This document shows positions 9,471 to 61,781 of a stretch of DNA of 64,000 bases, one piece after another. The notes below the pieces were generated by a model. That model made no database searches. It was given only the letters and a program-made list of their open reading frames with translations, and was not told the DNA's origin. The stretch comes from Pristiophorus japonicus (Eukaryota): contig NW_027251778.1 of assembly GCF_044704955.1 (NCBI RefSeq), forward strand, positions 124,001 to 188,000, read 5' to 3'. Every line of letters starts with the position of its first letter. Position 1 is the first letter of the stretch. The translations under genes and the position numbers were made by a program.

Positions 9471-9509
9471 CACAGTGACTCAGGGAGATGGAGGGGCTCG
9501 ACACAAACC
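9471..9509 (+). other. 23-RSS of V1
   Basis: CACAGTG + 23 nt (actcagggagatggaggggctcg) + ACACAAACC. Confidence 0.95.
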
Positions 9510-10124
9510 CCACCATGGCAGGAAACACCTGTGGATGGTGAGCCCTGTCGCGTTTATTCTGCAGCGCGAATGTGTTTTTGACAAGCAAAGACGGTTTAGA
9601 GTGAAAGTGAGAGATTAGGTGTAGAGTCACTGGAGAAGGTACAAAGAAAGATTAACAGGGATAACACCAGAATTGAGAGGTTCAAACTATCAGGAAATGC
9701 TCAACAGGCCGGGGCTGTTGTGTCCAGAAAAGAGAAGGCTGAGGGGTGAACCTGTCAGAGGTCTTTACAGATTAACTGTGTGTTTTATAGGGTAGGGCGG
9801 AGAGAAGCAAGATAGAAAGATAGGAAGATAGAAAGATAGGAAGATCAACAGAAAGGAAGATAGAAAGAATAAAAGAAAGAAAGGAAGAAAGAAAGACAGA
9901 GTCAAGAATGAAAGATTGTAAGCAGGAAAAAGAGCTGAAAGAAATATAGAGAAAAGAAAGATAAAAAGGCAGAACGATAGTAAAAAAAATAACGAATTTT
10001 TAGAAGGTGGAATGCAAGAAAGATACATTTTTAAACACTGACAGTGTATTTTCTTTCTTCACACGGATAGCAGAGGGCGTACTAGACCATGAAACAAACG
10101 AGTGCCCAGAACATAGTTCACAAT

Positions 10125-11185
10125 AGGAACAAAGGAACAGGAGGAGGCCCATTCAGCCCCTCGACTCTGCTACACAGGAACAGGAAGAGGCCCATTCAGC
10201 CCCGCGAGCCTGTTACACAGGAACAGGAGGAGGCCCATTCAGCCCCTCGACTCTGCTACACAGGAACAGGAAGATGCCCATTCAGCCCCGCGAGCCTGTT
10301 ACACAGGAACAGGAGGAGGCCCATTCAGCCACTCAATTCTGTTACACAGGAACAGGAGGAGGCCCATTCAGCCCCTCGAGCCTGTTACACAGGAACAGGA
10401 GGAGGCCCATTCAGCCCCTCGAGCCTGTTACACAGGAACAGGAGGAGACACATTCAGCCCCTCGACTCTGTTACACAGGAACAAGAGGAGACCCATTCAG
10501 CCCCGCGAGCCTAATACACAGGCACAGGAGGAGACCCATTCAGCCCCTCGAGTTTGTCACACAGGAACAGGAGGCCATTCAGCCCCTCGGGCCTGTTATA
10601 CAGGAACAGGAGGAGGCCCATTCAGCCCCGCAACTCTGTTACACAGGAACAGGAGGAGGCCAATTCAGCCCATCGAACCTGTTACCCAGGAACAGGAGGA
10701 GGTCATTTAGTCCCTCAAGCCTGTTACACTGGAAGAGGAGGCCCATTCAGCCCCACTAATCTGTCACACAGGAACAGGAGGAGGGTATTCTGCCCCTCGA
10801 AACTGTTTTACAGGAATAGGAGGAGGCCCATTCAGCCCCTCGACTCTTTTACACAGGAACAGCTGGAGGCCTTTCAACCACTCGAGCCTGTTACAGAGGA
10901 ATAGGAGATCAATTCAGCCCATCGAGCATGTTACAGAGCAACGAGAGGAGGCCATTCAACCAGTGTAATCGCTTAAAAGGAGCAGGTGGCCCATTCATAA
11001 CCCTCTCGTCGGTTACACGGGAACAGGAGGAGGTCCATTCAGCCCCTCGAGCCTGTTAAACAGGAACAGGAGGAGTCCCATTCTGCCCCTCGAGACTGTT
11101 GCACAGGAACAGGAGGAGTCCCATTCAGCCCCTCGAGACTGTTGCACAGGAACAGGAGGAGGCCCATTCAGCCTCTCGAACCTGC
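10125..11185. repeat. 43/40-bp minisatellite array (cagcccctcgagcctgttacacaggaacaggaggaggcccatt)
   Basis: Tandem units running into a degraded minus-strand CR1 (to ~11730). Confidence 0.92.
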
Positions 11186-12010
11186 TGGCCCGTTCAATTA
11201 CATCATGTCGATCATTATATTTCTCTTTTGAACCATATGACGCGAAACCCAGACCCAACCAAAACTGTAGCAATCTCTGTCTTGAAGCCTGCAATTGACC
11301 CCCGGCCTCAACATTTGGAGGAGAGAGGTTCATAATTCCATTACTCTTTGTGTGAAGAAGTGGTTTCTGATGCAATGCCTCAACGGCCTGCCTCTAATTT
11401 TAAGTCTCTGTCCATTCCTTCTGGAGTCCCCGACGGAGGAAATTGATTCTCCCTATCTACCACATCCACCCCTTTTAATGCTTTATGAACCTCAATCAGT
11501 TCACCGCCGAATCTCCTATTGTGAATGTAGTACAAACCATGTTGATGTAACCTCTCCTCTTCATTTAATCCCCCTGGCCTGCCTGTCATTCTGTTGAATC
11601 TGTGTTGAAGCCCATTGCAAGTCAAACAGGGAGGTAAGGTGCCCAGAACAGAAGTCAGCTCTCCAGATGAATTCTGACTGAGGCTGTGTGCAATTGAAGC
11701 ATCAAATCTTTCTCTCTGTATTGCAGCCTCCTTCACCCGTAACTATCCACTCATTGGTAGTGATTTGTGGACATGGTCTTCGAAGTCACTTTGTTCCTCC
11801 ACAGTTAACTCCCACTTCCCATCTGCTCCACTCAAAGGCCAATCAGAGAGGGAGGGGCGGGGCTGACAATCAGACGATCCAAACCTGCATCACTTCCGCA
11901 CATTCTTCATATTTTCCTCAATGATTTGAAAAGAGCGAATTTGGCTCCTCACAGACTCCCCGCTCCTGCTCTCGCTCCTTTCATTATTGAGGGAAAACTT
12001 CAAGTCAAAG

Positions 12011-12562
12011 ATGTATCAGTTACTGGGACTGATGATCTTGTTTCAGCGTAAGGGACTTTTACACAATATNNNNNNNNNNNNNNNNNNNNNNNNNNNNNNN
12101 NNNNNNNNNNNNNNNNNNNNNNNNNNNNNNNNNNNNNNNNNNNNNNNNNNNNNNNNNNNNNNNNNNNNNNNNNNNNNNNNNNNNNNNNNNNNNNNNNNNN
12201 NNNNNNNNNNNNNNNNNNNNNNNNNCCCTGTTTACTGACCGCCTCCTCTCCCTGTCTTTTTCCCAGACGTGAGCTCACAGACTATCCACCAGACTCCAGC
12301 CGCTGTCTCCAGATTTCCCGGGGAAGGAGTGGAATTGAAATGCACTATGGAGGGAACAAGCAACCCTTACATGTACTGGTACAGACAGGACCCGGGGAGG
12401 GAGCCGCAGTTTATGTTTTACTCTGTGGGTACCAATGCCGTGGATCCAGACGGGCCGGTGGATTTTTTTACCGCACACCGACCGAATGAGAAGGAGTTTA
12501 ACCTGAAGTCCTCCGGCCTGCGGGCGGATCAGGCGGCCGTGTATTACTGCGCCTGGAGTCTG
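12011..12562 (+). CDS. TRBV: TCR beta V segment V2, family A (TRBV30-like), apparently functional; leader 12011-12047, V exon 12267-12562
   Basis: Leader MYQLLGLMILFQ|GTAAGG. Open V exon SQTIHQTP...CTMEGTSNPYMYWYRQ...FYSVG...YYCAWS. Confidence 0.9.
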
Positions 12563-12601
12563 CACAGTGACTCAGGGAGATGGAGGGACTCGACACAAAC
12601 C
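12563..12601 (+). other. 23-RSS of V2
   Basis: CACAGTG-23-ACACAAACC. Confidence 0.95.
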
Positions 12602-13209
12602 CCACCATGGCAGGAAACACCTGTGGATGGTGAGCCCTGTCGCGTTTATTCTGCACAGCGAATGTGGTTTTGACAAGCAGAGACGGGTTCGAGTTAAAGT
12701 GAGAGATTAGGTGTAGAGGCACTGGAGAAGGTTCAAAGACAGATTAACAGGGATAACACCAGAATTGAGAGTTTCAAACTATCATGAGAGTCTGAACAGG
12801 CTGGGGCTGTTGTGTCCTGAAAAGAGAAGGCTGAGGGGTGAACCTGTCAGAGGTCTTTACAGATTAACAATGTGTTTTATAGGGTAGGGCGTAGAGAAGC
12901 AAGGTAGAAAGATAGGGAGATAGAAAGAATGGAAGATAGGAAGAATAAAAGAAAGAATGGAAGATAGAAAGAAACACAGAAAGAAGGAATGAAAGAATGT
13001 AGCAGCAAAAAGAGTAGGAAAGAACGATATAGAAAATAAAGACAGATAGAAAGGCAGAACGATAGTTTAAATAAAAGAACGAATTTTTAGAAAGTTGGAA
13101 TGCAAGTAAAATACTTTTCTAAACACAGACAGTGTGTTTTCTATCTTCACAGGGACAGTAGAGGCCGCTCGAGACCATGAAATCCATCAGTGCCCAGGAA
13201 ATGGTTCAC

Positions 13210-13980
13210 AATAGGAACATAGGGACAGGAGGAGACCCATTCAGCCCCTCGGACCTGATACACAGGGACAGGAGGAGGCCCATTCAGCTCCTCGAGCCTG
13301 TCACACAGGAACAGGAGGAGGCCCATTCAGCCCCTCGAGCCTGTTACACAGGAACAGGAGGAGGCCCATTCAGCTCCTCGAGCCTGTCACACAGGAACAC
13401 GAGGAGGCCCATTCAGCTCCTCGAGCCTGTTACACAGGAACAGGAGGAGGCCCATTCAGCTCCTCGAGCCTGTTACACAGGAACAGGAGGAGGCCCATTC
13501 AGCTCCTCGAGCCTGTCACACAGGAACAGGAGGAGGCCCATTCAGCTCCTCGAGCCTGTTACACAGGAACAGGAGGAGGCCCATTCAGCCCCTCGAGCCT
13601 GTTACACAGGAACAGGAGGAGACCCATTGAGCCCCTCGAGCCTGTTACACAGGAACAGGAGGAGACCCATTCAGCCCCACGAGCCTGTCACACAGGAACA
13701 GGAGAAGGCCCATTCAGCCCCTCGAGCCTGTTACGCAGGAACATGAGGAGGCCAATTCAGCCCCTCGAGCCTTTTACAGAGGAACAGAAGCCCCATTCAG
13801 CCACTCTAATCTGTTACACAGGAAGCGGACGCTCATTCAGCCCTCTAATCTGTTACACAGGAACAGGAGCAGGGTATTCAGCGTTTCAAGCATGTAACGC
13901 AGGTACAGGAGGAGGCCCAGTCAGCCCTTCGACCCTGTTACATAGGAACAGGAGGAGGCCATTCAGCCCCTCGAACATAC
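13210..13980. repeat. 43-bp minisatellite array
   Basis: Same unit, followed by CR1 remnant. Confidence 0.92.
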
Positions 13981-14508
13981 TGCCCAACCAGTTATATCAT
14001 GGTCGATAATTATTTATCTCTTTTGCCCCATATCACGCCCATACCCAACCAAAACTGTACCAACTTCTGTCGTGAACCCTGACATTGAGCCGAGGCTGAA
14101 CTGCTTTTGGAGGAGAGAATTCCAAGTTCCCACTACTCTTTGTGTGAAGAAATGGTTTCTGATGCAATGCCTGAACGGCCTGACTCTAATTTTAAGTCAC
14201 TTACCATTCCTTCTGGAGTCCCCGACTGGAGTAAATTGATTCTCTCCATCGACCATATCAACATATTTTAATGGTTTACAAACCTCATTCAGTTCACCGC
14301 CGAATCTCCTGTAGTCAATGTAATACACGCCACGTTGATGCAACCTGTCCTCTTCCAATCATGGTCAACCAGGGAGGGAGGGGCTTTGTCTGTCAATCTG
14401 AGAGGGAGGGCTTTTTCTGTCAATCTGAGAGCGAGGGGCGAGGCCCTCACACACTCCCCCCTCCTGTTCTCAATCCTTTCATTATTGAGGGAAAACTTCA
14501 AGTCAATG

Positions 14509-15043
14509 ATGTATCAGTTAATGGTCTTGTTTCAGCGTAAGGGAAGTTTACAAAATATAAGTCTTNNNNNNNNNNNNNNNNNNNNNNNNNNNNNNNNNNN
14601 NNNNNNNNNNNNNNNNNNNNNNNNNNNNNNNNNNNNNNNNNNNNNNNNNNNNNNNNNNNNNNNNNNNNNNNNNNNNNNNNNNNNNNNNNNNNNNNNNNCA
14701 GAATGTCCCTCTTTACTAATCGCCTCCTCTCCCCGTCTCTTTCCCAGACGTGAGCTCACAGACCATCCGCCAGACTGTGGCCGCTGTCTCCAGATTTCCC
14801 GGGGAGTGAGTGGAATTGAAATGCACTATGGAGGGAGCAAGCACCCCTTACATGTACTGGTACAGACAGGACCCGGGGAAGGGGCCGCAGTTTATGTTTA
14901 TCTCCCAAATTGTACAAAGTGTGAATGCAGTGGGGCCGGTGGATGGCTTTACCGCCCAGTGACCGACTGGCAAGGAGTTTAACCTGAAGTCCTCCGGCCT
15001 CTGGGTGGATTATGCGGCCATGTATTACTGCGCCTGGAGTCCG
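14509..15043 (+). pseudogene. TRBV: TCR beta V pseudogene V3, family A; leader 14509-14536, V exon 14748-15043
   Basis: The leader lacks 9 nt relative to V1/V2. In-frame TGA stops at 14807-14809 and 14960-14962; otherwise colinear with V2. Confidence 0.9.
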
Positions 15044-15082
15044 CACAGTGACTCAGGGAGATGGAGGGGACCGACAGAAACC
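15044..15082 (+). other. 23-RSS of V3
   Basis: CACAGTG-23-ACAGAAACC. Confidence 0.9.
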
Positions 15083-15409
15083 CCACCATGGCAGGCAACA
15101 TCTGTGGGAGATAGATGTGACTCATGGTATATCTAAGTCTATTTACCCATTTGTCCATCTAACTGTCTCTTTGTCTGTCCGTCTGTCGCTATGCATCTGT
15201 CCATCTGTCCATCATCCCTCCATCCATCATCCCTCCATCCATCATCCCTCCATCCATCCATTCATCCATTCACTCATTATCTATCTCTGTTTATTTACAT
15301 AATATATGTATGTATATATATATATATATATACACATCTCTGTTTACATCTATCTATCCATCTATATCAATGTCCATCCATCTATCTATCTTTCTATCTG
15401 TCTGTCTGC

Positions 15410-15416
15410 CTGCCTT

Positions 15417-15507
<91 letters not shown>

Positions 15508-15510
15508 GTC
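15410..15510. repeat. (TCTA)n microsatellite
   Basis: Direct. Confidence 0.95.
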
Positions 15511-15574
15511 CCTCTGTCTGCCTGCCTGTATATGCGTCTGTCCATCTGTTCGTCGATCCATCCGTCCATTTATA

Positions 15575-15830
15575 GAAACATAGAAACATAGAAAATAGTT
15601 GCAGGAGTAGGCTATTCGGCCCTTCGAGCCTGCACCGCCATTCAATGAGTTAATAGCTGAACATGCAACGTTAGTATGTCATTCCCGCTTTCTCGCCATA
15701 CCCCTTGATTTCCCCTTGTAGTAAGGACTACATCTAACTCCTTTTTGAATATATTTAGTGAATTGGCCTCAACAACATTCTGTGGTAGAGAATTTCACAG
15801 GTTCACCACTCTCTGGGAGAAGAAGTTTCG
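15575..15830 (-). mobile_element. CR1 LINE 3' fragment
   Basis: Tail (atagaaac)n and reverse of FFSQRVVNL. Confidence 0.8.
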
Positions 15831-17221
15831 TTATCTATCATATATATATATATTCATCTCTCTATACATCTATCTATCCATCTATNNNNNNNNNNNNNNN
15901 NNNNNNNNNNNNNNNNNNNNNNNNNNNNNNNNNNNNNNNNNNNNNNNNNNNNNNNNNNNNNNNNNNNNNNNNNNNNNNNNNNNNNNNNNNNNNNNNNNNN
16001 NNNNNNNNNNNNNNNNNNCTATATCTGCAGTTGGACACACTCGCAGAGTAGATGAACGTAAAACATAATGGTCACCAGGGGGAAGCAGTGATCACATTTA
16101 CGCACATTTGTTGCTCTCGTGTCATTGAGATGAAATGAAAGAATAAACCGTAGCTCGAAATAAAGAAAGTTTCATTGGATGAAAGAGAGACAAAAGTTGA
16201 AGTAACGGAATTAAAAAGGAAAGTAAGCGAATAGGAATGCAAGGAAAGGGTTTAGAATAAAAAGGACCAAGAAAGAAGGAAATAATGTAAGAAAGAGAAA
16301 GAGGAAATGATAGTGAAAGGAAGAAAAAAGGAGCGAAGGAATGAAAGCAACAAAGAAATCCAGAAATAACTTCAACGAGCAGGAGAGGGATAGACAGATA
16401 AATAATGAAAGGTAAAGCAAGGAAGAATTAAGGAATAAATGTCGAGAGTTTGATTCGATGAAAGGAAACAGGATTTACATAAAGAATGACAGAAATACAT
16501 TAATGACAATATGATAGAAAGCACGAAACACAGACAGAAAGATGGAAGAAAAGGGCAGAAAGTAAGACGGTTCGAAAGAACTAAAGAACGAGAGAGAACA
16601 AAAGAAAGATAGAAAGATAGAATGAAACAAAGAAGGAAAGGAAGAAAAGAAATAGGGAAAGAAAGAGAGACGAAAATAAGTATAGAAAGAAACAGAGAAA
16701 GAAAAAGAGAAAGAAAGAAGGAAAGAGAATTTAGAGTGAGAGAAAGCCGGAAGGGTAAAGAAGGAGAGAATGAAATAAAGGAAGTTAGAAAGAAGGATGG
16801 CAAGAGAGAATGAAAGTCAGGAGGAAAGAAAGAAGGATAGAAGGAGAGAATGAAAGCAAGCAGGAAAGAAAGAGAGAATGAAAGAAAGAGCTCTCCTTTA
16901 CTGATTAGATACAGAGTAAAGCATATAATTTACAGGTTGGATACAGAGTAAAGCCTCCGTGTTGTTGTGGGTTTAAGGAACCCCAGACTCTACCATCAAA
17001 GGGAGGAGACTGGGCGCCGATTACCCAGAGTCCCCATTAGCCCCGCCCCGGGAATGAGCAGTCCCGATGAGGGAGCCAATAAACTGGTGAAGAGAGATTG
17101 GCCCCTCCCACTTGCATATTCACCATGAAGAGCAGCGGGTCAGTAAATGCCACAGTGCCCAGGACTGTGAGATATTCTGAGGTTGCACACCGAGAACCCC
17201 CGGATCTCCCTCCCCCCAGAG

Positions 17222-18053
17222 ATGCCTGTGTCCCAGCTCTGGCTTGTGTTGCTGGTGTTAACGGGTCAGGTGGAGCTGGGCTGTGAGATCTCAGCGATCC
17301 TCACTTTAATTTCCCCGTGTGTCCCTTCACACCGCGGGCTGGTCCAGATTCTCTGCCCCTCGGTTTATAGCGTGTTCTCTCTCTCTCTCTTTCTCTCTTT
17401 CTCTCTCTCTGTCTCTCTCTGGCTCTCTCACTTTCTCGTTTCTATTGCTCTCTCCTCATGTGCTCCTTCTCATCCTCCGGCGGTGTGTAGATTGTCGCTC
17501 GGTTTATCTCTCTCTCTTTATCTCATTCTCTCTCTGTCTTTGCCTCTCTTTATCTCTGTCCGCCCCGCTGTCTCAGTCCCTCCCTCACTCTCCCTCTCGC
17601 TCTCTCCGTCGCGTTTTGTCTCTCTGCCTCCCTCGCCCCCTCTCTCCCTCACTCTCTTTACCCTCCTTTACCGCTTCATGGCGGGTGTTTATATGAAATT
17701 TCTCCCTGGGTTTATCGCTATCTCTAACTCTCTCTCTCTTTCTCGGTTTTACAGATGTGGGGGCCGTGCTGATCCAACAGACCCGCGCTTCCATATCCAA
17801 TTCCCTGGACACTCCGGTTAGCATCGAGTGCCTTTACACAGAAGCAACAGCTAGCTCCTATTTCTACTGGTACCGGTGGCATCCTGACCGGGAGCCTCAG
17901 AACCTTTTCATTTCCAGAAACGCCAAAATGGTCACTCCCTCCGGTGAGGTGGACGGATTCACCGCCAGGAGACCCGACAACACCCACTTCTACCTGGAGA
18001 CCTCCGGCCTGCGGGCGGATCAGGCGGCCGTGTATTACTGCACCTGGAGTCTG
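17222..18053 (+). CDS. TRBV: TCR beta V segment V4, family B; leader 17222-17264, V exon 17755-18053
   Basis: Leader MPVSQLWLVLLVLT+g with donor GTCAGG (weaker than the GTAAGG of most paralogs). Open V exon DVGAVLIQQT...SIEC...YFYWYRWHPDREP...YYCTWS. Confidence 0.8.
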
Positions 18054-18092
18054 CACAGTGACTCAGGGAGATGGAGGGGCTAGACACAAACC
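18054..18092 (+). other. 23-RSS of V4
   Basis: CACAGTG-23-ACACAAACC. Confidence 0.95.
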
Positions 18093-18659
18093 CCACCATG
18101 GCAGGAAACACCTGAGGATGGTGAGCCGTGTCGTGTTTATTCTGCAGAACCAATGTGTGTTTGACAAGCAGAGACGGGTTAGAATAAAAATGAGAGAGGT
18201 TGCAAAGAAAGATTATCAGCGATAACACCAGAATTGAGCGGTTGAAACTATCAGGAAATATTGAAGAGGCCGGGGCTGTTGTGTCCAGAAAAGAGAAGGC
18301 TGAGGGGTAAACCTGTCAGAGGTCTTTACAGATTAACAAAGTGTTTAATAAGGTTGGGCGGAGAGAAGCAAGACCGAAAAAAAGGAAGATAGAAAGAATG
18401 GAAGATCGGAAGAATAAAAGAAAGAAAGGAAGAGAGAAAGAAAGACAGAATGAAAGAATGTAACAGGAAAAGATAGAGAAAATAAAGAAAGATAAAAAGG
18501 CAGAAAGAAACTAAATCAAAAAGAACGAATTTTTAGAAAGTTGCAATGCAAGAAAATACTTTTTTAAACACTGACAGTATGATTTCTTTCTCCACAGGGA
18601 CAGTAGAGGGAGCTCTAGACCATGAAACACAACAATGCCCAGAACATGGTTCACAATAG

Positions 18660-18960
18660 GAACACAGGAACAGGAGGACGCCCATTCAATCCCTCGAGCA
18701 TGTTACACAGGAACAGGAGGAGGCCAATTCAGCCGCTCGAGCGTGCTACACATGAACAGGAGGAGGCCCATTCAGCCCCTTAAGCCTGTTACACAGGAAC
18801 AGGAAGGCTATTCAGCCCCGCGACCCTTTTACACAGGAACAGGAGGAGGCCCATTCAGCCCCTCGACCCTCTTACACAGAAACAGGAGGAGGCACATTCA
18901 GCCCCTCTAATCTGTCACACAGGAAGAGGAGGAGGCCCATTCAGCCCCTCGTGGCTGCTG
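18660..18960. repeat. 43-bp minisatellite array (short)
   Basis: Same unit. Confidence 0.88.
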
Positions 18961-19714
18961 CCCCATTCAGTTATCTCATGGTCGATCATTATTTATCTCG
19001 TTTGCCCCATATCACGCGACACCCATCCCCAAACAAACTGTACAATTATCTGTCTTGAACGCTGCCCTTGACCCCCATCCACAACCCCTTTTGGAGGAGA
19101 AAGATCCATATTGCCACTATTCTTTGTGTGAAGAAGTGGTTTCTGATGCAATGCCTTAACGGCCTATCTCTAATTTGAAGCCACTGGCCATTCCTTCTGG
19201 GGTCCCTGACCGGAGGAAATTGATTCACTCTATAGACCATATCAACCCCTTTTAATGCATTACCAACTCAATAAGCTCACCGTCGAATCTCCTATAGTCA
19301 ATCTAATACAAGCCACGTTGATGCAACCTGTCCTCTGCATTTGAAGCAGAGACGGGTTAGCATAAAAGTGAGAGAGGGTGCAAAGAAAGATTATCAGGGA
19401 TAACACCAGAATTGAGCGGTTCAAACTATCAGGAAATATTGAACAGGCCGGAACTGTTGTATCCAGAAAAGAGAAGGCTGAGGGGTGAACCTGTCAGAGG
19501 TCTTTCCAGATTTACGATGTGTTTTATAGGGTAGGGCCGAGAGAAGCAAGATAGAAAGATAGCAAGATAGAAAGAAAGGAAGAAAGGAAGAATAAAAGAA
19601 AGAAAGGAAGAAAGAGCGAAATAAATAAAGGACGACAGGACGAAAGAGGGAAAGAATGGAAGCAGATAAGAAGAGTAGGAATGAATGAAAGATAGAAAGT
19701 GAGAAGGTTACTAA

Positions 19715-24209: not shown

Positions 24210-25271
24210 ATGTATCTGTTACTGGGTCTCATGATCTTATTTAAATGTAAGTGATTATTTCACGCAGTAATCGTTTTAAATATCCGTTCCTTACTGTTTC
24301 TTTCCTTCTTTCGTTCATTCTATCTTTCTCTCTTCCTTTCTTTTTCTCATTCTTTACTTCTTTACTACTTTCTTTATCTCTTTATCTCATTATTCACTTC
24401 TTTCTTTCGCCCCTTCTCTCATTCTTTACTTCTTTCTTGCTATCGTTCTTTCTTTAATTCTCTCTTTCTCTCCCTCTCTCTTTGTCTCATTCGTTGTTTC
24501 TCCATATCTTTCTTTCTAACTTTCTTNNNNNNNNNNNNNNNNNNNNNNNNNNNNNNNNNNNNNNNNNNNNNNNNNNNNNNNNNNNNNNNNNNNNNNNNNN
24601 NNNNNNNNNNNNNNNNNNNNNNNNNNNNNNNNNNNNNNNNNNNNNNNNNNNNNNNNNNNNNNNNNNNNNNNNNNNNNNNNNNNNNNNNNNNNNNNNNNNN
24701 NNNNNNNNNNNNNNNNNNNNNNNNNNNNNNNNNNNNNNNNNNNNNNNNNNNNNNNNNNNNNNNNNNNNNNNNNNNNNNNNNNNNNNNNNNNNNNNNNNNN
24801 NNNNNNNNNNNNNNNNNNNNNNNNNNNNNNNNNNNNNNNNNNNNNNNNNNNNNNNNNNNNNNNNNNNNNNNNNNNNNNNNNNNNNNNNNNNNNNNNNNNN
24901 NNNNNNNNNNNNNNNNNNNNNNNNNNNNGAATGTCCCTGTTTATTGATCACCTCCTCCCCCCGTCTCTTTCCCAGACGTGAGCTCACAGACGATCCGCCA
25001 GACTCCGGCCGCTGTCTCCAGATTTTCCGGGGAGGGAGTGGAATTAAAATGCACTGTGGAGGGAGCAAGCACCCCCGACATGTACTGGTACAGACAGGAC
25101 CCGGGGAAGGGGCCGCAGTCCATGTTTTACTCCAGCGGCACCAATCACATCAATCCAGAGGGGATGGTGGATGGTTTTACCGCCGAGCGCCGGAATGACA
25201 AGGAGTTTAACCTGAAGTCCTCCGTCCTGCGGGCGGATCAGTCGGCCGTGTATTACTGCGCCTGGAGTCTG
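24210..25271 (+). CDS. TRBV: TCR beta V segment V6, family A, apparently functional; leader 24210-24246, V exon 24976-25271
   Basis: Leader MYLLLGLMILFK+t|GTAAGT. Open V exon ending YYCAWS. Confidence 0.88.
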
Positions 25272-25310
25272 CACAGTGACTCAGGGAGATGGAGGGGCCC
25301 GACATAAACC
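25272..25310 (+). other. 23-RSS of V6
   Basis: CACAGTG-23-ACATAAACC. Confidence 0.9.
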
Positions 25311-25716
25311 CCTAAGGCAGCAGGAAACACCTGTTGGAGATTGGTCTGTCTCGTTGCCTATGTGTCTGTTTGTGTGTCTGTTTACCCATTTATCTGTCTG
25401 ACTCTGCATTTATCTGTCTTTCTTTCTGTCGATCTGCTGTCCGTCTGTCTACCTGCCTACCTGTATTAAAGGGGACAGGAACCAGTTATGGGAGATAGAT
25501 CTGTCTCGTTGTCTATGTGTTATTTGTCTGACTATTCACCCATGTATCTGTAAGTCTGTCTCTCTGTCTGACTGGCTGTCGATCGACCTCTCTATCCATG
25601 TATCTGTCTGTCTGCCTATCTATCTATCCATGTATCTATCTGTCTGTTGTCCGACTGTCTGAACACTATATATGCAGTTGGATACGCTCGTGGAGGGGAC
25701 GATCTTGGAAGATAAT

Positions 25717-25734
25717 GGCCAGTAGGGGACAGCA
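25717..25734 (+). promoter_or_regulatory. CTCF-consensus-like motif in flank type 2 (paralogs at 16072 and 28628)
   Basis: The three copies give consensus TGGYCASYAGGGGGCAGCA; each copy has one deviation. Confidence 0.45.
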
Positions 25735-25779
25735 GAGACCACATTTTGATCCTCGAGTCGGACAGGTGGACTGAAAGAA

Positions 25780-26760: not shown

Positions 26761-27127
26761 TCTCTTTTAATGATTACATTCAGAGTAAAGTCCACGCCTG
26801 ACTTATTATGTGGAGATAAATCTTTCTCTTACTGGTTATATACAGAGTTAAAGCCGCTCATCCCCTGATTAAACCCTGAGAGTGAGTCAGACACACAGTA
26901 TAACTCCCTGTTCACCATCACTGCCCTCTCAGACAAAGGGTTCGCGGACCGCCCTATAACCTCAGTCCCCATTAGCCCCACCCCTGGATGGACCAGACAC
27001 GATGAAGGAGCCAGTAAACTGGCGAGGAGAGATTAGCCCCTCCCACCCGCACATTGAACATTGGAGAACAGCGGGTCAGTAAATGCCACAGTGCCCAGAA
27101 CTGTGAGATATTCAGAGGTTGCACACC

Positions 27128-31467: not shown

Positions 31468-31514
31468 TAGACCATGAAACACACCAGTGCCCAGTAACAT
31501 GGTTCACAATAGGT

Positions 31515-42866: not shown

Positions 42867-42899
<33 letters not shown>

Positions 42900-44179: not shown

Positions 44180-45790
44180 AAGGCTCGAAGCCTCCTTTTA
44201 CACAGGAGCAGGGTGCCATTCAACTCATCGAGCCTGTTATACAGGAAGAGAAGAAGGCCCAATCAGCAGCTCGAATCTGTTACACAGTAACAGGTGGAGG
44301 CACATTCAACCCCTCGAACACGTTACAAATGAACAGGAGGAGGCCCATTTATCCCCTGGAACCTGTTGCAGAGAAACAGCAGGACATTCAGCTTCTCGAG
44401 CCTGATACTCTTGAACTGGAGTCCCATTCACCCCCTCGAGCCTGTTGCACAGGAACAGGAGGAGTCCCATTCAGCCCCTCGAGCCTCTTACACAGGAACT
44501 GGAAGAAACCCATTCAGTCCCTCGAGCCTGTTACACAGGAAACGGAGGAGGCCCAATCAGCTCCTCGAGCCATTTACAGAGGAACAGGAGGTCCATTCAG
44601 CCCCTCGAGCCTTTTACACAGGAACAGGAGGAGGCCCATTCAACCCCTCGAGCCTGTTACACAGGAACAGGAGGAGGCCCATTCAGGCCCTCGAGCCTTT
44701 TACCAGATGACCAAGAGGAGGCCCATTCAGCCCTTCGAGCTTGTTACACAAGAACAGGAGGAGGCCCATTCAGCACCTCGAGCCTGTTACACAGGAAACG
44801 GAGGAGGCCCAATCATCCCCTCGAGCCTTTTACAGATGAACAGGAGGCCCATTCAGCCCCTCAAGCCTGTTACACAGGAACAGGAGGAGGCCCATTTAGC
44901 CCCTCGAGCCTTTTACACAGGAACAGGAGGAGGCACATTCAACCCCTCGAGCCTGTTACACAGGAACAGGAGGAAGCCCATTCAGCCCCTCGAACCTGTT
45001 ACCAGATGACCAGGAGAGGCCCATTTAGCCCCTCGAGCCTGTTACACAGGAACAGGAGGAGGCCCATTCAATCCCTCGAGCCTGTTACACAGGAACAGGA
45101 GGAGGCCCATTCAGCCCCTCGAGCCTGTTACACAGGAACAGGAGGAGGCCCATTCAGCCCCTCGAGCCTGTTACACAGGAACAGGAGGAAGCCCATTCAG
45201 CCCCTCGAGCTTGTTAATAGGAACAGGAGGAGGCCCATTCAGCCCCTCAAAGCTGTTACAGAGCAACAGGATGCGTTTTCATCCTTTCGAGGCTGTTACA
45301 CAGCAATAGGTGGAGTCTCATTCAGACCCTCAGACCTGCTACATAGGAACAGGAGGCGGATTCAGCCCCTCTAATCAGTTACACAGGAACAGAAGGAGGG
45401 TATTCAGCAATCAGGCCGTCGAGCATGTTACACAGGAACAGGAGGCACATTCCATCACTCGAACATGTTACACATGAACAGGAGGAGGCCCATTCAGCCC
45501 CTCGCACCTGTTACACAGGAACAGGAGGAGGCACATTCAAACCCTCGAGCCTGTTTACAAGAACAGGAGGAGGCCCATTCAGCCGGTCAAAGCTGTTACA
45601 GAGCGACAGGAGGCTCTTTCAGCCTTTCGAGGCAGTTACACTTCAATAGGAGGAGGCGCATTCAGCCCCTCGATCCTGTTACACAGGAATACTAGGCAAT
45701 TAAACCCCTGGAAACTGTTACATAGGAACAGGAGGAGTCCCATTCAACCCCTCAGGCCTGTAACATAGGAACAGGAGGCGCATTCATCAT
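44180..45790. repeat. 43-bp minisatellite array
   Basis: Same unit. Confidence 0.9.
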
Positions 45791-46655
45791 GCAGTGACGT
45801 GGATACGTTAGGTGAATGGGCAAATGCATGGCAGATGAAGTATAATGTGGATAAATGTGAGGTTATCCACTTTGGTGGTAAAAACAGAGAGACAGACAAT
45901 TATCTGAATGGTGACAGATTAGGAAAAGGGGAGGTGCAACGAGACCTGGGTGTCATGGTACATCAGTCACTGAAGGTTGGCATGCAGGTAAAGCAGGCGG
46001 TTAAGAAAGCAAATGGCATGTTGGCCTTCATAGCGAGGGGATTTGAGTACAGGGGCAGGGAGCTGTCACTACAGTTGTACAGGGCCTTGGTGAGGCCACA
46101 CCTGGAGTATTGTGTACAGTTTTGGTCTCCTAACCTGAGGAAGGACATTCTTGCGATTGAGGGAGTGCAGCAAAGGTTCACCAGACTGATTCCCGGGATG
46201 TCGCAACTGACAAATCAAGAAAGAGTGGATCAACTGGACTTGTATTCACTGGAGTTCAGAAGAATGAGAGGGGATCTCATAGACAAGTTTAAAATTCTGA
46301 CGGGTTTGGACAGGTTACATGCAGGAAGAATGTTCCAAATGTTGGGGAAGTCCAGAACCAGGGTTCACAGTCGAAGGATAAGGGGTAAGCCATTTAGGAC
46401 CGACATGAGGAGAAACTTGTTCACCCAGAGAGTGGTGAACCTGTGGAATTCTCTTCCACAGAAAGTTGTTGAGGCCAATTGTCTAAATATATTCAAAAGG
46501 GAGTTAGATGTAGTCCTTACTACTAGGGGGATCAAGGGGTATGACGAGAAAGCAGGAATGGGGTACTGAAGTTGCATGTTCAGCCATGAACTCATTTAAT
46601 GGCGGTGCAGGCTCGAAGGGCCGAATGGCCTACACCTGCACCTATTTTCTATGTC
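45790..46655 (+). mobile_element. CR1 LINE 3' fragment, open frame 45799-46569
   Basis: WQMKYNVDKCEVIHFGGKN..LVRPHLEYCVQFWSP..GIKGY, then 3' stem-loop. Confidence 0.92.
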
Positions 46656-46881: not shown

Positions 46882-47819
46882 ATGAACCCCCGGATCTCCC
46901 TCCCCCCAGAGATCACTGTGTCCCAGCTCTGGCTTGTGTTGCTGGTGTTAACGGGTAAGGTGGATCTGGGCTGTGAGATCTCAGCGATCCTCACTTTAAT
47001 TTCCCCGTCTGTCCCTTCACAGCGCGAGCAGGTCTAGATTCTCTCCCCCTCGGTTTATAGAGTGTCCTCTGTCTATGTGTCTGCCTCTCTCCCTCTGTCT
47101 CCCTCCCTCTGTGCCGCTATCTCTCTACCTGCTACTCGATCTGTTTGTCTTACTGCGTTACTGTCCAGCTATGTTTCCCTTCTCTCTCTCTCTCTCTCTT
47201 TCTCTTACTATCTTGTTTCTATCCCTCACTCCTCGTGCACCTTCTCATCCTCCAATGATGTGTAGATTGTTGATTGGTTGAACTATCTTTCTGTATCACA
47301 TTCTCTCTGTCTTTGCCTCGCTCGTTCTGTCCGTCGCGCTGTCTCACTCCCTCCCTAATTCTATCTCTCACTCTCTCAGTCGCGCTTTGTCTCTCTGTCT
47401 CTCTCGCCCAGTCTCTGCCTCACTCTCTCTACCCTCCCCTGCCCCATCATGGCGGATGTTTATATGCAATATCTCCCTGGTTTTATCGCTATCTCTAACT
47501 CTCTCTCTTTCTCGGTTTTACAGATGTGGGGGCTGTGCTGATCCAACAGTCTCCCGCTTCCATTTCCAATTCCCCGCGCACCCCGGTTAGCATCGAGTGC
47601 CTTTACACAGAAGCAGGTGCTGTCTCCCGTTTCTACTGGTACCGGTGGCATCCTGACCGGGAACCTCAGAACCTTTTCTCTTCCTACTCTGGAACGGACA
47701 CTCCCAGCGGGGAGATGGACGGGTTCACCGCCAGGAGACTCGACAACACTCACTTCTACCTGGAGACCTCCAGCCTGCGGGCGGATCAGGCGGATGTGTA
47801 TTACTGCGCCTGGAGTCTG
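46882..47819 (+). CDS. TRBV: TCR beta V segment V13, family B; leader 46882-46954, V exon 47524-47819
   Basis: Leader MNPRISLPPEITVSQLWLVLLVLT|GTAAGG. Open V exon ending YYCAWS, with CDR2 one codon shorter than its paralogs. Confidence 0.87.
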
Positions 47820-47858
47820 CACAGTGACTCAGGGAGATGGAGGGGCTCGACACAAACC
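47820..47858 (+). other. 23-RSS of V13
   Basis: CACAGTG-23-ACACAAACC. Confidence 0.95.
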
Positions 47859-49129
47859 CCACCATGGCAGGAAACACCTGTGGGAGACAGATATCTCTAG
47901 TCTGTTTATCTGAGTCTGTTTGTGTGTCTCTTTACCCATTTATCTCTATGTCTCTTTATATATCTATCTGTCTTTCTNNNNNNNNNNNNNNNNNNNNNNN
48001 NNNNNNNNNNNNNNNNNNNNNNNNNNNNNNNNNNNNNNNNNNNNNNNNNNNNNNNNNNNNNNNNNNNNNNNNNNNNNNNNNNNNNNNNNNNNNNNNNNNN
48101 NNNNNNNNNNNNNNNNNNNNNNNNNNNNNNNNNNNNNNNNNNNNNNNNNNNNNNNNNNNNNNNNNNNNNNNNNTACTGTTTAATTCATACCGATAAAAAA
48201 TGATATATTTTGCATTTCATTTATATTTACATTGTTGCATCTTCTTATTCTCTTTTAATTGAGATTACTTCAACAGATTATGCATTGTTAAAAATCCCCG
48301 ATCAATGTTTCGGATGTGCTATTCATAACGAAATAATCTATGTGTCAACAACGGATTATGAGCTGGGGTAAATGGGAGAATGCTCGTGTTGAAAGAATGA
48401 ATACAGGAATATGGGAAGGAGTTACGCCTAGCTCCCGATTATACCAGTGAATAGTTCCCAGGCACATACTGTCAGAGGAGGTGTTTATTCCTCCTGTTAC
48501 TTGCCCTATCGCAATAGCAACGAGAAGAGCTGATTATTATAGAATCCCAGAAGGATACATTACAGAATAAGGCGATTCGCTCCATCGTGTCTGTGCTATC
48601 CAATTAGTCCCAGTCCCCTGACCCGTTCCCCACAGCACTGAAAATGTACCCTTCATACAGTTAGCCCACCCCAGTTTAAAGTTACTGTTGAATCTGATTC
48701 CAGCACCCTTTCAGGCAACGCGTTCCAGATCACAATAATTCACTGAGGTGAAAGCTTTTACTCACCTCCGGCTCCGGTTCTCCAGCAAATATCCTTAAAT
48801 CTGTCTCCTTTCTTTATCCACCCTCCTGCCACTGGGTCCAGTTTCTCCTTAGATACTCTATCAAAACACTGAAATTAATGTAAGTACCTTTTTTAAACCT
48901 GCTCTTCACATTCACCGCTGTAAGAGAAACAACCCCAGACAGACAGGAGACAGTTAATCTGAGAACCCTGAGCCGTGTGACGGTTGTTTCTCGCTGTGCA
49001 GACGCGAGATGGCGCTGCAGATCCGTTTCTCACTGGGACACCTGCCCCCGGACAGGTGCTCGAGTCTCTGCTGCAAACCGTTAACCCACTTGTCTGTCAG
49101 ACTCTGGGTGCCTTCTAACAACATCACAA

Positions 49130-55714: not shown

Positions 55715-56330
55715 ACTTTCTAATTTCTATCTCTCACTCCTCATGTGCTCCTTCTCATCCTCCAGTGATGTATAGATTGTCGGTCTGTTTATCTCTCACT
55801 CGATCTCATTCTCTCTCTGTCTTTCCCGCTTTCTCTCTGTCTGTCCCGCTGTCTCACTCCCTCCCTCACTCTCTCTCTCGCTCTCTGCGTCGCGCTCTGT
55901 CTCTCTGCCTCTCTCGCCCCCTCTCGCTCACTCTCTCTTCCCTCCTCCGACCCTTCAAGGCGGGTGTTCATATGCAATTTCTCCCTGGGTTTATCTCGAT
56001 CTCTAACTCTCTCTCTTTCTCGGTTTTACAGATGTGGGGGCCGTGCTGATCCAACAGACCCCCGCTTCCATATCCAATTCCCCGGGCACTCCGGTTAGCA
56101 TCGAGTGCGTTTACACAGAAGCAACAGCTAGCTCCTATTTCTACTGGTACCGGTGGCATCCTGACCGGGAACCTCAGAACCTTTTCTATTCCATCGTCCC
56201 TGGATCGGTCACTCCCTCTGGTGAGGTGGACGGATTCACCGCCAAGAGACCCGACAACACCCACTTCTACCTGGAGACTTCCAGCCTGCGGGCGGATCAG
56301 GCGGCCGTGTATTACTGTGCCTGGAGTCTG
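55296..56330 (+). CDS. TRBV: TCR beta V segment V15, family B, apparently functional; leader 55296-55368, V exon 56032-56330
   Basis: Leader MNPRISLPPEIPVSQLWLVLLVLT|GTAAGG. Open V exon ending YYCAWS. Confidence 0.9.
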
Positions 56331-56369
56331 CACAGTGACTCAGGGAGATGGAGGGGCTCGACACAAACC
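56331..56369 (+). other. 23-RSS of V15
   Basis: CACAGTG-23-ACACAAACC. Confidence 0.95.
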
Positions 56370-56984
56370 CCACATGGCAGCAAACACCTGTGGATGGTGA
56401 GCCCTGTCGCGTTTATTCTGCAGAGCGAACATGATATTGACAAGCAGAGACGGGTTAGAGTTAAAGTGAGAGATTAGGAGTAGAGGCACTGGAGAAGGTG
56501 CAAAGGAAGATTAACTGGGATAACTCCAGAATTGAGAGGTTCAAACTATCAGGAAAAGCTGAACAGGCCGGGGCTGTTGTGTCGTGAAAAGGGAAGGCTG
56601 AGGGGTGAACATGTCAGAGGTCTTTACAGATTAACAATGTGTTTTATAAGGTAGGGCGTAGAGAAGTGAGATAGAAAGATTGGAAGATGGAAAGAAAGGA
56701 AGATCGGAAGAATAAAAGAAAGAAAGGAAGAGAGAAAAGAAGACAGAAGGAAAGATAGAAAGAATGTAAGCAGGAAAAACAGTTGGGAAGAAAGATAGGG
56801 AAATTAAACAAAGATAGAAAGGCAGAATGATCGTAGAAATAACAACGAATTTTTAGAAAGTTACGAATGCAAACAAAATACTTTCTTAAACACTGAAAAT
56901 GTGTTTTCTTTATCCACACGGACAGTAGAGGGCGCTCTAGACCATGAAACACACATGTGCCGAGAAAACGGTTCACAATCGGTA

Positions 56985-59900
56985 AACTGGAACAGGAGGA
57001 GGCCCTTTCTGCCCCTCGAATCTGTTAGACAGGAGCAGGAGGAGGCACATTCGATCCCTCGACCCTATTACACAGGAACAGGTGGAGGCCCATTCAGACG
57101 ACTGAGATGTTACACAGCAACAAGAGGAGACCAGTCATCCCTTCGAGACTTTTACACAGGAACAGCAGGCCATTCAGCCGCTCGAGTATCTTAAACCATA
57201 ACAGGAGGCACATTCAGCCTCTCAAGCCTGTTACACAGCACAAAATGGAGGCCATGCAGCCACTCTAATCTATTAGATAGAAACAGGAAGCCCATTCAGC
57301 CCCTCGAGCACTTTAAATAGGAACAGAAGGGCCATTCAGCCCCTCGAGCCTGTTACACAGGAACAGGTGGAGGGCATTCAGCCCCTCGAGTCTGTTACAC
57401 AGGAACAGGAGGAGGCACGTTCAGCCACTGTGAGCTGCGAGGAGGATGCAATAAGGCTGCAGAGTGACTTGGATAGGTTAGGTGAGTGGGCAAATGAATG
57501 GCAGATGAAGTATAATGTGGATAAATGTGAGGTTGTCCACTTTGGTGGTAAAAACAGAGAGACAGACTATTATCTGAATGGTGACAGATTAGGAAAAGGA
57601 GAGGGGCAACGAGACCTGGGTGTCATGGTACATCAGTCATTGAAGGTTGGCATGCAGGTACAGCTGGTGGTTAAGAAAGCAAATGGCATGTTGGCCTTCA
57701 TAGCGAGGGGATTTTGAGTACAGGGGCAGGGAGGTATTGCTACAGTTGTACAGGGCCTTGGTGAGGCCACACCTGGAGTATTGTGTACAGTTTTGGTCTC
57801 CTAACTTGAGGAAGGACATTCTTGCTATTGAGGGAGTGCAGCGAAGGTTCACCAGACTGATTCCCGGGATGGTGGGACTGACCTATCAACAAATACTGGA
57901 GCAACTGGGCTTGTATTCACTGGAGTTCAGAAGATTGAGAGGGGATCTCATAGAAACATTTAAAATTCTGACGGGGTTAGACACGTTAGATGCAGGAGGA
58001 ATGTTTCAAATGTTGGGGAAGTCCAGAACCATGGTTCACAGTCTAAGGATAAGGGGTAAGCCATTTAGGTCCGAGATGAGGAGACACTTCTTCACCCAGA
58101 GAGTGGTGAACCTGTGGAATTCTCTACCACAGAAAGTAGTTGAGGCCAATTCACTAAATATATTCAAAAGGGAGTTAGATGAAGTCCTTACTACTCGGGG
58201 GATCAAGGGGTATGGCGAGAAAGCAGGAAGCGGGTACTGAAGTTTCATGTTCAGCCATGAACTCATTGAATGGCGGTGCAGGCTAGAAGGGCTGAATGGC
58301 CTGCTCCTGCACCTATTTTCTATGTTTCTATGTTTCTATGGCACATTCAACTCATCAAACATTTTACACAGGAACGGGAGCACATCCGACCCTTGCGCCT
58401 GATACACAGGAACAGAAGGAGGCCCATTCAGCACCTCGAGCCTGTTGCACAGGAAGAAGTGAAGGCCCATTCAGCCCCTCGAGCCTGTTACACAGGAACT
58501 GCAGGCCTATTCAGCCCATGGAGCCTGTTACACAGGAACAGGAGGAGGCCCATTCAACCCCTAGAGACTGTTACATAGGAACAGGAGGAGGCCATTTAGC
58601 ACCATGAGCCTATTACACTGGAAGAGGAGGCCCATTCAGCCCCACTAATCAGTCACACAGGAACAGGAGGAGGCCCATTCAGCCCCTCAAACCTGTTAAA
58701 GAGCAACTGGAGGAGTCCATTCAATCAGTGTAATCTGTGACATAGGAAAAGGAGGCCCATTCTAATATTCTAACTGGTTACACAGGAACAGGAGGCCCAC
58801 GCAAATCATTGCGCCTGTTAAACAGGAACAGGAGTAGTACCGTTCAGTCGTCGAGCCTGTTACACAAGAACAGGAGGAGGCCCATTCACCCCCTCTAATC
58901 TGTTACACAGAAACAGGAGGAAGCCCATTCAGCCCCTCGAGCATGTTACACAGGAACAGGAGGAGTCCCATTCAGCCCCTCGAGCCTGTTACACAGGAAC
59001 AGCAGGAGGCCCATTCAGCCCCTCGAGTCTGCTACACAGGAACAGGAGGAGTCCCATTCAGCCCCTCGAGCCTGTTACACAGGAACAGGAGGCCTATTCA
59101 GCCCCTCGAGCCTGTTACACAGGAACAGGAGGAGTCCCACTCAGCCCCTCGAGTCTGTTATATATGAACAAGAGGCACATTCTGCCCGTCTAATCTGTTA
59201 CCCAGGAACAGGAGGAGGCCCATTCAGCCACTGGAGCCAGTTACACAGGGACAGGAGGAACCCTTTTCAGCCCCTCGAGCCTGTTATATATGAACAGGAG
59301 GCTCATTCTGCCTCTCTAATCTGTTCCCCAGGAAAAGGAGGAGGCCCATTCACCCCCAGGACTGTGTTATACAGGAACAGGAGGCGACCCATTCAGCCTT
59401 TCAAGGCTGCTGCACACCTACAGGAGGAGGCCCATTCAACCCCTTGAGTCTGTTACACAGGAATACGAGGCCATTCAAGCCCTCGAGCCTGTTACACAGC
59501 AACAGGAGGAGGCCCATTAGCACCACAAGCCTGTTACACAGGAACAGGCGGCCTCTCGGCTCCTCGAGCCAGTTACACAGGCGCAGGAGGAGGGCCATTC
59601 AGCCCCTCGAGCCTGTTACACAGGAACAGGAAGAGGCCCATTCAGCCCCTCGAGCCTGTTGCAAGGAGAAGGATGGGGCACATTCAGCCCCTCAAGCCTA
59701 TTACACGGGGAAGGGAGAAGGCCCATTCAGCCCCTCGAGCGTGTTACACAGGAACCGGCGGCCACTCACTCCTGGAGCCAGTTACCGAGGATCAGGAGAT
59801 CCATTCCGCCCGGCGAGGCTGTTGCAACGGAACAGGAGGCCCATTCAGCCGCTCGAAATTTTTACACAGGAATTGGAGGCCTATCAGACACTTGCGCCGG

Positions 59901-60025
59901 TTACACAAGAACAGGAGGATGCCCAATCAGCCCCTGCACCTTGTTACACAGGAACAGGAGGACATTCAGCCGCTCGAGCCGATGACAAAGGAACAGCAGG
60001 AGGCCACTCAGCCCCTCTAATCTGC
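56985..60025. repeat. 43-bp minisatellite array interrupted by a CR1 (57430-58340)
   Basis: Same unit on both sides of the LINE. Confidence 0.9.
57430..58340 (+). mobile_element. CR1 LINE 3' fragment
   Basis: LQSDLDRLGEWANEWQMKYNVDKC..; one frameshift ~57715; tail tttctatgtttctatg. Confidence 0.92.
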
Positions 60026-61007
60026 TGCACCAATCAGTTATATCATGTTCGATCATTATTTATGTCCTTTGCCCCATATCACGGGACACCAATACCCAAC
60101 CAAAACTGAACCAATCTCTGTTTTGAAGCCTGCAATTGACCCCCAGCCCCAACAGCATTTGGAGGAGAGAGTTCCACATTCCCACTACTCTTTGTGTGAA
60201 GAAGTGGTTTCTGATGCAATGTCTGAACGGGCTGGCTCTAACTTTAATCTCTTACCGATCCTTCTGGAGTTCCTGACTTGAGGAAATTGATTCACTCTAT
60301 CTACCATATCAACCCCTTTTAGCGCTTTACGAAATTTCAATGAGCACACCACCGAATCTCCTGTAGTCAGTGTAATACAAGCCACGTTGATGCAACCCCC
60401 CAGCCCTGCTGTCATTCTGTTGAATCCGTGTTGAACCCCTAACAGGGGTGTGCGGTGCCCAGAACTGAAGGCAGTTCTCCAGAGCAATTGAAACTGAGGC
60501 TGTGTGCAACTGATGCATCCAATCTTTCTCTCTGTATTCCAGCTCCCTTCACCCCTTACTATCTATTCATTGGTCGTGATTTGTGGACATAGTCTTCGAA
60601 ATACCTATGTTCCTCCACAGTTAGCTCCTGCATCCCATCTGCTCCAATCATGGCCAGTCAGAGAGGGAGGGGCGGGGCTGGCAATCAGGAAGGGAGGAGC
60701 TTTGTCTGTCAACCAGGGGGAGGGGCATAATCTGTCAATCAGAGAGAGAGAGGGGCTTTTTCTGTCAATCAGAGAGGGAGGGGCATTGTCTGTCAATCAG
60801 AGAGGGAGGGGCTATTTCTGCAAAATCAGCGAGGTAGGTGCATTGACTGCCAATCAGAGGCAGGGGACGGACGATCCAAAGCTGCATCACTTCCTCACAT
60901 TCTTCATATTTTGCTCAATGATTTGAAAAGAGCGAATTTGGCTCCTCACAGACTCCCCGCCCCTGCTCTCGCTCCTTTCATTATTGAGGGAAACCTATAA
61001 GCCAAAC

Positions 61008-61781
61008 ATGTGTCATTTACTGGGACTGATGATCTTGTTTCAGCGTAAGGGACTTTTTCAAAATATGAGTATTCNNNNNNNNNNNNNNNNNNNNNNNNNN
61101 NNNNNNNNNNNNNNNNNNNNNNNNNNNNNNNNNNNNNNNNNNNNNNNNNNNNNNNNNNNNNNNNNNNNNNNNNNNNNNNNNNNNNNNNNNNNNNNNNNNN
61201 NNNNNNNNNNNNNNNNNNNNNNNNNNNNNNNNNNNNNNNNNNNNNNNNNNNNNNNNNNNNNNNNNNNNNNNNNNNNNNNNNNNNNNNNNNNNNNNNNNNN
61301 NNNNNNNNNNNNNNNNNNNNNNNNNNNNNNNNNNNNNNNNNNNNNNNNNNNNNNNNNNNNNNNNNNNNNNNNNNNNNNNNNNNNNNNNNNNNNNNNNNNN
61401 NNNNNNNNNNNNNNNNNNNNNNNNNNNNNNNNNNNNNNNNNNNNNNNNNNNNNNNNNNNNNNNNNNNNNNNNNNTGTCCTTGTTTACTGACCGCCTCCTC
61501 TCCCTGTCTCTTTCCCAGATGAGAACTCACAGACTATATGCCAGACTTCAGCCGCTGTCTCCAGATTTCCTGGGGAGGGAATGGAATTGAAATGCACTGT
61601 TGAGGGAACAAGCAACCCCGACATGTACTGGTACAGACAGGACCCCGGGAAGGAGCCGCTGTCAATGTTCATCTCCACAACTGTACAAAGTGTAAATCCA
61701 TTTTACTGGCGAGAGACCGAAAGGCAACGATTTTAACCTGTACTGTTCCGGCCTGTGGGCGGATCAGACGTCCGTGTATTA
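61008..61781 (+). pseudogene. TRBV: TCR beta V pseudogene V16, family A, truncated, no RSS; leader 61008-61044, V exon from 61519
   Basis: Leader MCHLLGLMILFQ|GTAAGG. A frameshifting deletion follows ...VQSVNP (~61700). Homology stops at gtgtatta before the second Cys, and a CR1 element follows. Confidence 0.88.

Follow-up and report, generated by a model that had tools for sequence, protein, structure and literature searches.

A 125-bp block around the recombination signal sequence links two V families to either of two downstream flanks in a likely T-cell receptor beta array of Pristiophorus japonicus

The window analyzed here, a 64,000-nucleotide stretch of Pristiophorus japonicus DNA (assembly GCF_044704955.1, contig NW_027251778.1, positions 124,001 to 188,000, forward strand), contains an array of 16 variable (V) gene segments that likely belongs to a T-cell receptor (TCR) beta locus (TRB). 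All 16 lie on the + strand and were located by a recombination signal sequence (RSS) scan and tblastn; we kept the numbering V1 to V16 of an earlier note on this DNA. Two families, A and B, have only 38% amino-acid identity over the V head but share a block of 125 bp, from -62 to +63 around the start of the RSS heptamer, which comprises the end of framework region 3 (FR3) and the RSS. We propose, with a probability of roughly 0.7, that germline unequal crossover and gene conversion placed heads from one family in front of the other family's flank, with the joins inside this block. A 23-bp-spacer RSS is kept in 15 of the 16 segments, V16 being broken off upstream of its own. The blocks are listed below by window position; types 1 and 2 denote the two kinds of flank that follow them, and LINE stands for long interspersed nuclear element.

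9409..9534, + strand: block of V1, family A, type 1; heptamer starts at 9471
12501..12626, + strand: block of V2, family A, type 1; heptamer 12563
14982..15107, + strand: block of V3, family A, type 2; heptamer 15044; two stop codons; 14 of 125 bases off the majority
17992..18117, + strand: block of V4, family B, type 1; heptamer 18054
25210..25334, + strand: block of V6, family A, type 2; heptamer 25272; post-nonamer form also present in bamboo shark read-through
28117..28240, + strand: block of V7, family B, type 2; heptamer 28179
30796..30921, + strand: block of V8, family B, type 1; heptamer 30858, reading TACAGTG; first Cys lost
35898..35976, + strand: end of V10, used as a control; heptamer 35937; 76% block-like, spacer 55% like A/B spacers
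39180..39305, + strand: block of V11, family B, type 1; heptamer 39242
42026..42151, + strand: block of V12, family A, RSS altered; heptamer 42088; type 2 start reaches 42278
47758..47883, + strand: block of V13, family B; heptamer 47820; type 2 start reaches 47977, then a run of N and unrelated DNA
56269..56393, + strand: block of V15, family B, type 1; heptamer 56331
61736..61781, + strand: left part of the V16 block, family A, cut off at 61781 by an inverted LINE; type 1 resumes at 63143

Both edges of the block are sharp. In a repeat-masked self-comparison, all 30 alignments between type 1 and type 2 stop at +60 to +64, and 17 of the 30 A/B pairs begin at -62, the other 13 extending to -104 to -117 at lower identity. 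Sliding windows gave cross-family identities of 0.3-0.7 upstream and 0.83-0.99 inside the block, and cross-type identities near 0.2-0.3 past it. Family markers stop at -53 to -62 and flank markers begin at +62 to +64, the block between them being too uniform to place crossovers. The left edge recurs in contigs of organism A that end at 39180 with an A-type FR3 (five in run X1 and four in run X3, the two runs being one sample and possibly the window's own source); for the +63 edge the evidence comes from the window, no type 2 end being among the 21 contig loose ends listed. The expectation of the earlier note that diagonals of a self-comparison should end in the FR3/RSS block was thus borne out for type 1 against type 2 (30/30) but not for whole modules, several of which end at LINEs, such as type 1 behind V4 and V8.

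All four combinations of family and flank are present, both reciprocal products included: A with type 1 (V1, V2), A with type 2 (V3, V6, V12), B with type 1 (V4, V8, V11, V15) and B with type 2 (V7, V13). In 11 of the 11 A/B genes with an RSS, the switch of ancestry falls inside the common homologous tract with no base lost or added, the coding ends are exact and no trimmed junctions occur. Germline RAG end-joining, through hybrid or open-and-shut joints, was rejected as a source of these products because the sharing runs 62 bp into the coding side and all 11 coding ends are unchanged.

The block looks homogenized rather than merely conserved, judging by codon and silent-site comparisons. Where A and B genes share a residue, they use the same codon at 431/443 positions (97%) in the block, which covers the last 20 codons, and at 331/852 (39%) in the head, and their spacers are identical at 654/690 positions; these counts are pairwise over 30 A/B pairs and not independent. 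Spacers of V5, V9, V10 and V14 reach 36-55%. Four-fold degenerate sites in the block deviate from the all-gene majority at 2/115, those in the heads from their own-family majorities at 28/360 (p = 0.025), and spacers differ from the majority at 7/253, with 6.6-10.2% for type 1 segments. Guanine-cytosine content at third positions is 0.82-0.84 in the block versus 0.65-0.66, a difference without a matched control, from which GC-biased conversion is not claimed.

Comparison with other species points the same way. Over the head, window B genes are closer to horn shark B (identity 0.73) than window A is to B (0.38). At the protein level the order is reversed in the 20 block residues, where window A and B share 0.83 and window B and horn shark B 0.64-0.67; for four B sequences from two other sharks the range is 0.62-0.67, so that paralogues exceed orthologues (10 window genes other than V3 and V16, and 16 V domains of other species). 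This is supported by organism C, another shark, in which three block changes stand at nearly full depth, two of them with zero depth in X1 and X3.

Another history, in which one or two old events gave both families the same 3' end and selection has held it since, with no ongoing exchange, is unlikely. The FR3 end and RSS read-through are similar in horn shark, bamboo sharks, catshark and rays, and selection therefore appears to supply the seed homology; moreover, in the damaged genes V3 and V12 the block has decayed roughly to flank level, and both retained head and flank together. Such an event, if it preceded the expansion, would however need selection on silent sites, because the four-fold difference between A and B in the block lies below the within-family head level. 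V8 speaks against it as well: its heptamer is dead and its flank start is the most diverged of all (28/258), yet its block is only 2/125 off. So does a derived post-nonamer form that is common to A and B genes and to both flank types, V6 carrying the bamboo shark form.

V3 and V8 also bear on the proposal that nicks made by RAG at the RSS in germ cells initiate recombination or conversion centered on the heptamer, making the RSS an exchange hotspot. If true, the enzyme that rearranges T-cell receptors would also reshuffle and homogenize the inherited V array. The symmetry of the block about the heptamer border (-62/+63) fits this idea; germline RAG activity is proposed for shark immunoglobulin (Ig) genes (PMC2193156), and in Chinese hamster ovary (CHO) cells a reporter underwent homologous recombination supported by RAG nicks (PMC6101574). 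The symmetry nevertheless has a plain reading, as the left edge is the conserved FR3 end and the right edge the start of repeat-derived DNA. Across the damaged genes the state of the block does not track the quality of the RSS: V3 combines an intact heptamer with an unconverted block, V8 a dead heptamer with a clean one; neither trimmed nor joined ends are seen, and the exchanges outside the block described below require no RAG. We therefore regard germline RAG nicking as unsupported and improbable, and ordinary crossover suffices on present evidence.

The flanks themselves obey a rule offset by one gene. Painting with reference segments bore out the assignment made in the earlier note, with type 1 after V1, V2, V4, V8, V11 and V15 and type 2 after V3, V6, V7, V12 and V13; the distal part of type 1 is also found past the broken V16 (63143-64000). 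In the V1 copy, type 1 consists of a CR1 remnant, a purine tract, a CTCF-like motif, a 43-bp array (10129-11184) and an inverted CR1. The flanks, and the promoters they lead to, are as follows.

9535..11842, + strand: complete type 1 flank of V1, leading to the V2 A promoter
11873..12069, + strand: V2 A promoter (long form) and leader
12627..14355, + strand: type 1 flank of V2, without the distal inverted-CR1 part, leading to the short-form V3 A promoter
15108..17020, + strand: type 2 flank of V3, with a LINE insertion and an N run, leading to the V4 B promoter
18118..19543, + strand: type 1 flank of V4, followed by a LINE; no A promoter is reached
25335..26960, + strand: complete type 2 flank of V6, leading to the V7 B promoter; no N run
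28241..29765, + strand: complete type 2 flank of V7, leading to the V8 B promoter; closest to the V6 flank
30922..32511, + strand: type 1 flank of V8, cut off by the LINE at 32514-32975; the next gene, V9, is of another family
39306..41186, + strand: complete type 1 flank of V11, leading to the V12 A promoter
44194..46654, + strand: 43-bp array and LINE, joined directly to the V13 B promoter outside the block
56394..60650, + strand: type 1 flank of V15, with the LINE at 57439-58339 inside its array, leading to the V16 A promoter

Uninterrupted type 1 leads to an A promoter in four of four cases (V1>V2, V2>V3, V11>V12, V15>V16) and uninterrupted type 2 to a B promoter in three of three (V3>V4, V6>V7, V7>V8), exactly as had been claimed. 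Flank type is associated with the family of the next promoter (Fisher p = 0.029) and not with that of the current gene (p = 0.57, 11 genes), each type following both families. Since the copies are not independent, the real evidence for the rule is the collinear homology, which supports the view that an intergenic type and the promoter downstream of it belong together. No counter-example exists among the seven uninterrupted flanks, but the type 1 array before the V13 B promoter breaks the pattern. At the end of the V4 flank, 19344-19543 is a local duplicate of its own type 1 start and groups with V4.

Could heads and flanks have been mis-joined during assembly through a near-identical 125-bp repeat? 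The window has 11 N runs, each within or beside simple repeats, its blocks are up to 99% identical, and no whole junction is spanned among the contigs listed. We still consider such an artifact very improbable: ordinary read pairs reach beyond 125 bp, and kilobase arrays were resolved. Head and tail trees of V3 and V12 agree across the block, variants of both block and tail are common to V6 and V7, and six flank-to-promoter links (V1>V2, V2>V3, V6>V7, V7>V8, V11>V12 and V15>V16) are free of N.

We suggest that the array grew from a tandem pair, A-type 2-B-type 1, in which type 2 would have separated A from the following B, and type 1 B from the following A. A misaligned crossover between A and B would resolve only where the families are alike, and cross-family swaps would fall in the block because it is the only strong A/B homology. 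The products would be runs of A-type 1-A (V1, V2) or B-type 2-B (V7), in which the unit is displaced by one gene, as unequal crossover between neighboring paralogues produces. The seed homology was probably preserved by selection acting on the FR3 end and the RSS, and repeated exchange may then have polished it; within-family exchanges and LINE-linked deletions probably fell elsewhere.

The polarity of this scheme fits 7 of the 12 genes, which are A-type 2 or B-type 1, and one contig of organism C (X7) joins a B exon and RSS to a type 1 CR1 remnant, which would agree with B-type 1 being old. In the opposite polarity, ancestral A arrays with type 1 spacers and B arrays with type 2 spacers would have been interleaved through the block. 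This would most simply explain why each spacer leads to one family, and A-type 1 (V1, V2, V16) and B-type 2 (V7, V13) do exist. It has only a slim chance of being correct, however, since A-type 1 and B-type 1 tails are close (V1-V11 8.9%, V2-V15 8.1%) and B-type 1 tails differ among themselves by 12-18%, A-type 2 tails split deeply (V3-V6 32%) with V7 nested beside V6, and the organism C contig pairs B with type 1. With the A-type 2-B-type 1 ancestor, the minimum is two cross-family events. More are suggested by V1, whose distal type 1 is placed with V11 (9:3:3 sites) but whose head is placed with V2, and by the type 2 of V7, which groups with V6 (10:1:0 sites); both counts are small.

The modules that resulted are mosaics and not fixed cassettes. 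The earlier note had proposed that modules run from the RSS of one gene to the FR3 of the next and are joined in any order: the joining of A and B through the shared FR3/RSS block stands, the intactness of the modules does not. A two-module cassette array is contradicted by incongruent segment trees, by the lack of a full module ahead of 5 of the 12 heads, and by the V13 junction outside the block. A complete module precedes seven of the 12 A/B genes and is missing before V1, V6, V11, V13 and V15. For the four type 1>A modules, distances of segments against those of the next A exon gave rho values of -0.7, -0.6 and 0.2 (six pairs each), so the intact module was rejected as the unit, with no positive signal between type 1 distance and the next A exon or promoter; flank plus current B exon did little better (rho 0.26). 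With both tests weak, neither definition of the unit holds cleanly. V3 and V12 pair as sisters whether the head (10.1%) or the flank (13.1%) is compared, and therefore look as if copied across the block. A promoter deletion of about 70 bp is common to V1 and V3 while the exons group V1 with V2 (18:1:2 informative sites), and the V3 intron start is V2-like ahead of its N run. Because this deletion cuts across exon clades, exchange also appears to occur outside the block, and these exchanges, together with the deletions, make the modules mosaic.

Several observations weigh against this history of crossover and conversion in the block. Each of the six A genes has one N run in its leader intron (8895, 12070, 14566, 24527, 41548 and 61075), so that promoter-to-exon links are not sequence-continuous; should these runs be scaffold gaps, the pieces on either side would lack a proven order, and swapping two A-gene pieces at such runs would remove the V1/V3 promoter conflict. 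The 24 bp behind the nonamer differ at 16/262, near flank level, and the blocks of V3, V6 and V12 are 14, 11 and 9 bases off the majority, about the level of neutral flank; homogenization is therefore not uniform, and selection accounts for part of the likeness. The case for events beyond the first two draws on a handful of informative sites, and that for polarity on one contig and on small, weakly supported trees; the whole comes from a single assembly, and no crossover was directly observed.

The identity of the locus was assessed separately. The V segments have a leader, an intron and a V exon with two Cys followed by a 23-bp-spacer RSS, as expected of TRB V segments; exceptions are V8 (first Cys), V3 (stop codons) and V16 (truncated). 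Their homologues are shark and ray proteins. A beta assignment is likely because one of these, the catshark gene model P0047, a prediction and not a cDNA, joins an A-like V (head identity 0.53) to a joining (J) and a constant region, and TCR beta chains make up most of its 60 listed PDB matches, although the five top scores are Ig chains. V relatives thus occur with a beta J and constant region in the catshark, whereas the only gene segments seen in the window are V segments, and PDB searches with single V domains gave no chain name. V5, V9 and V14 (heptamer starts 23299, 34106 and 52600) belong to families other than A and B. V9 (33766-34144) and V14 (52259-52638) form a separate pair, 83% alike, without flanks in common and with the non-canonical heptamers CACTGTG and CACAGCG. 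V10 is a diverged, B-like pseudogene; its promoter contains a 35-bp array (35096-35420) resembling the 28-bp repeats of A promoters, and downstream lies a 1.8-kb array of 22-bp units (36070-37851).

Repeats shape much of the flanks. In sequence, the 43-bp unit is similar to the CR1 LINE 3' end in reverse complement, and its array continues into the inverted CR1, which gives the array the look of a LINE terminus that was amplified. LINE copies at 32514-32975, 45793-46654 and 57439-58339 belong to one young subfamily (92-93% alike) and start right after 43-bp arrays, in similar phase and with different 5' ends, which would suit either a shared insertion with later deletions or a preferred target. 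The copy before V13 is 93% like the one in the V15 array and sits at the same phase of the 43-bp unit, and the copy behind V8 contains a perfect 60-bp tandem duplication (32703-32823), either a recent event or a local assembly error. Between V12 and the orphan 43-bp array, a G-rich 12/24-bp minisatellite (42496-44170) holds a duplicated unique stretch (42795-42867 and 43208-43280).

Both flank types also contain CTCF-like motifs on the + strand, in type 1 at 10067, 13155, 18600, 31452, 39845, 56922 and 63308 and in type 2 at 16072, 25719 and 28626, with a similar motif at 5547. They sit in the conserved non-repeat part of the flank, about 450-1030 bp past the RSS; seven matches at one mismatch compare with 0.86 expected, but the matches are copies of about two sites. 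Mouse sites, as given in PMC6746451, lie about 18 bp from the RSS and hence closer than those of the window; among the window matches with up to two mismatches, none falls directly behind a nonamer. Because each flank carries such a motif, a flank swap could change how often a V segment is used.

What the block offers in general is a way for V families too diverged for full-length recombination to keep expanding, contracting and trading RSSs and downstream DNA through a short tract. As a fixed 125-bp target with markers on both sides, it also makes germline RSS reshuffling testable, by ordinary crossover as against RAG. The closest known parallel comes from mammals, in the RSS swap between heavy-chain variable (VH) families, reportedly one old swap (Hassanin et al. 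2000, PNAS 97:11415), whose RSS history is said to be unlike that of the V coding part, with unequal crossover and germline RAG as candidate causes. The window differs in sharing a 125-bp block that includes the FR3 end and in holding all four head/flank combinations within 55 kb. Unequal crossover between paralogues is also familiar from Lepore and anti-Lepore globins and from opsin hybrids, in which each unit starts at some position within one gene and ends at the corresponding position of its neighbor; those paralogues are alike throughout, whereas here only 125 bp are strongly homologous, and the cross-family breakpoint is thereby fixed. Integron-type cassette arrays join modules in varied order at a shared site. 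The window resembles them in both respects and differs in having no integral modules and apparently no single crossover base, and no recombinase gene is among its features. We found no description of the shark block in the open-license literature; subscription papers and supplements lay outside this search, so that its absence from print is not established. Among TRB arrays, the TRBV5-TRBV6 region of goat, sheep and cattle mixes one- and two-gene duplications (PMC7488459) and is similar in its two alternating V families and mixed duplication sizes, although the available part of that account gives no within-gene breakpoints and no shared RSS block. The VH3/VH4 unit of the human Ig heavy-chain locus (IGH) is likewise recognized by a conserved spacer between V genes of different families (PMC2212390), but with one spacer type, a fixed VH3-to-VH4 order and a 5'-truncated VH4, and the portion seen describes no shuffling of two spacers such as occurs here. 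Set beside these systems, the reshuffling of heads and flanks in the window is a genuine and unusually clear pattern, and a case of a known kind of array reshuffling.

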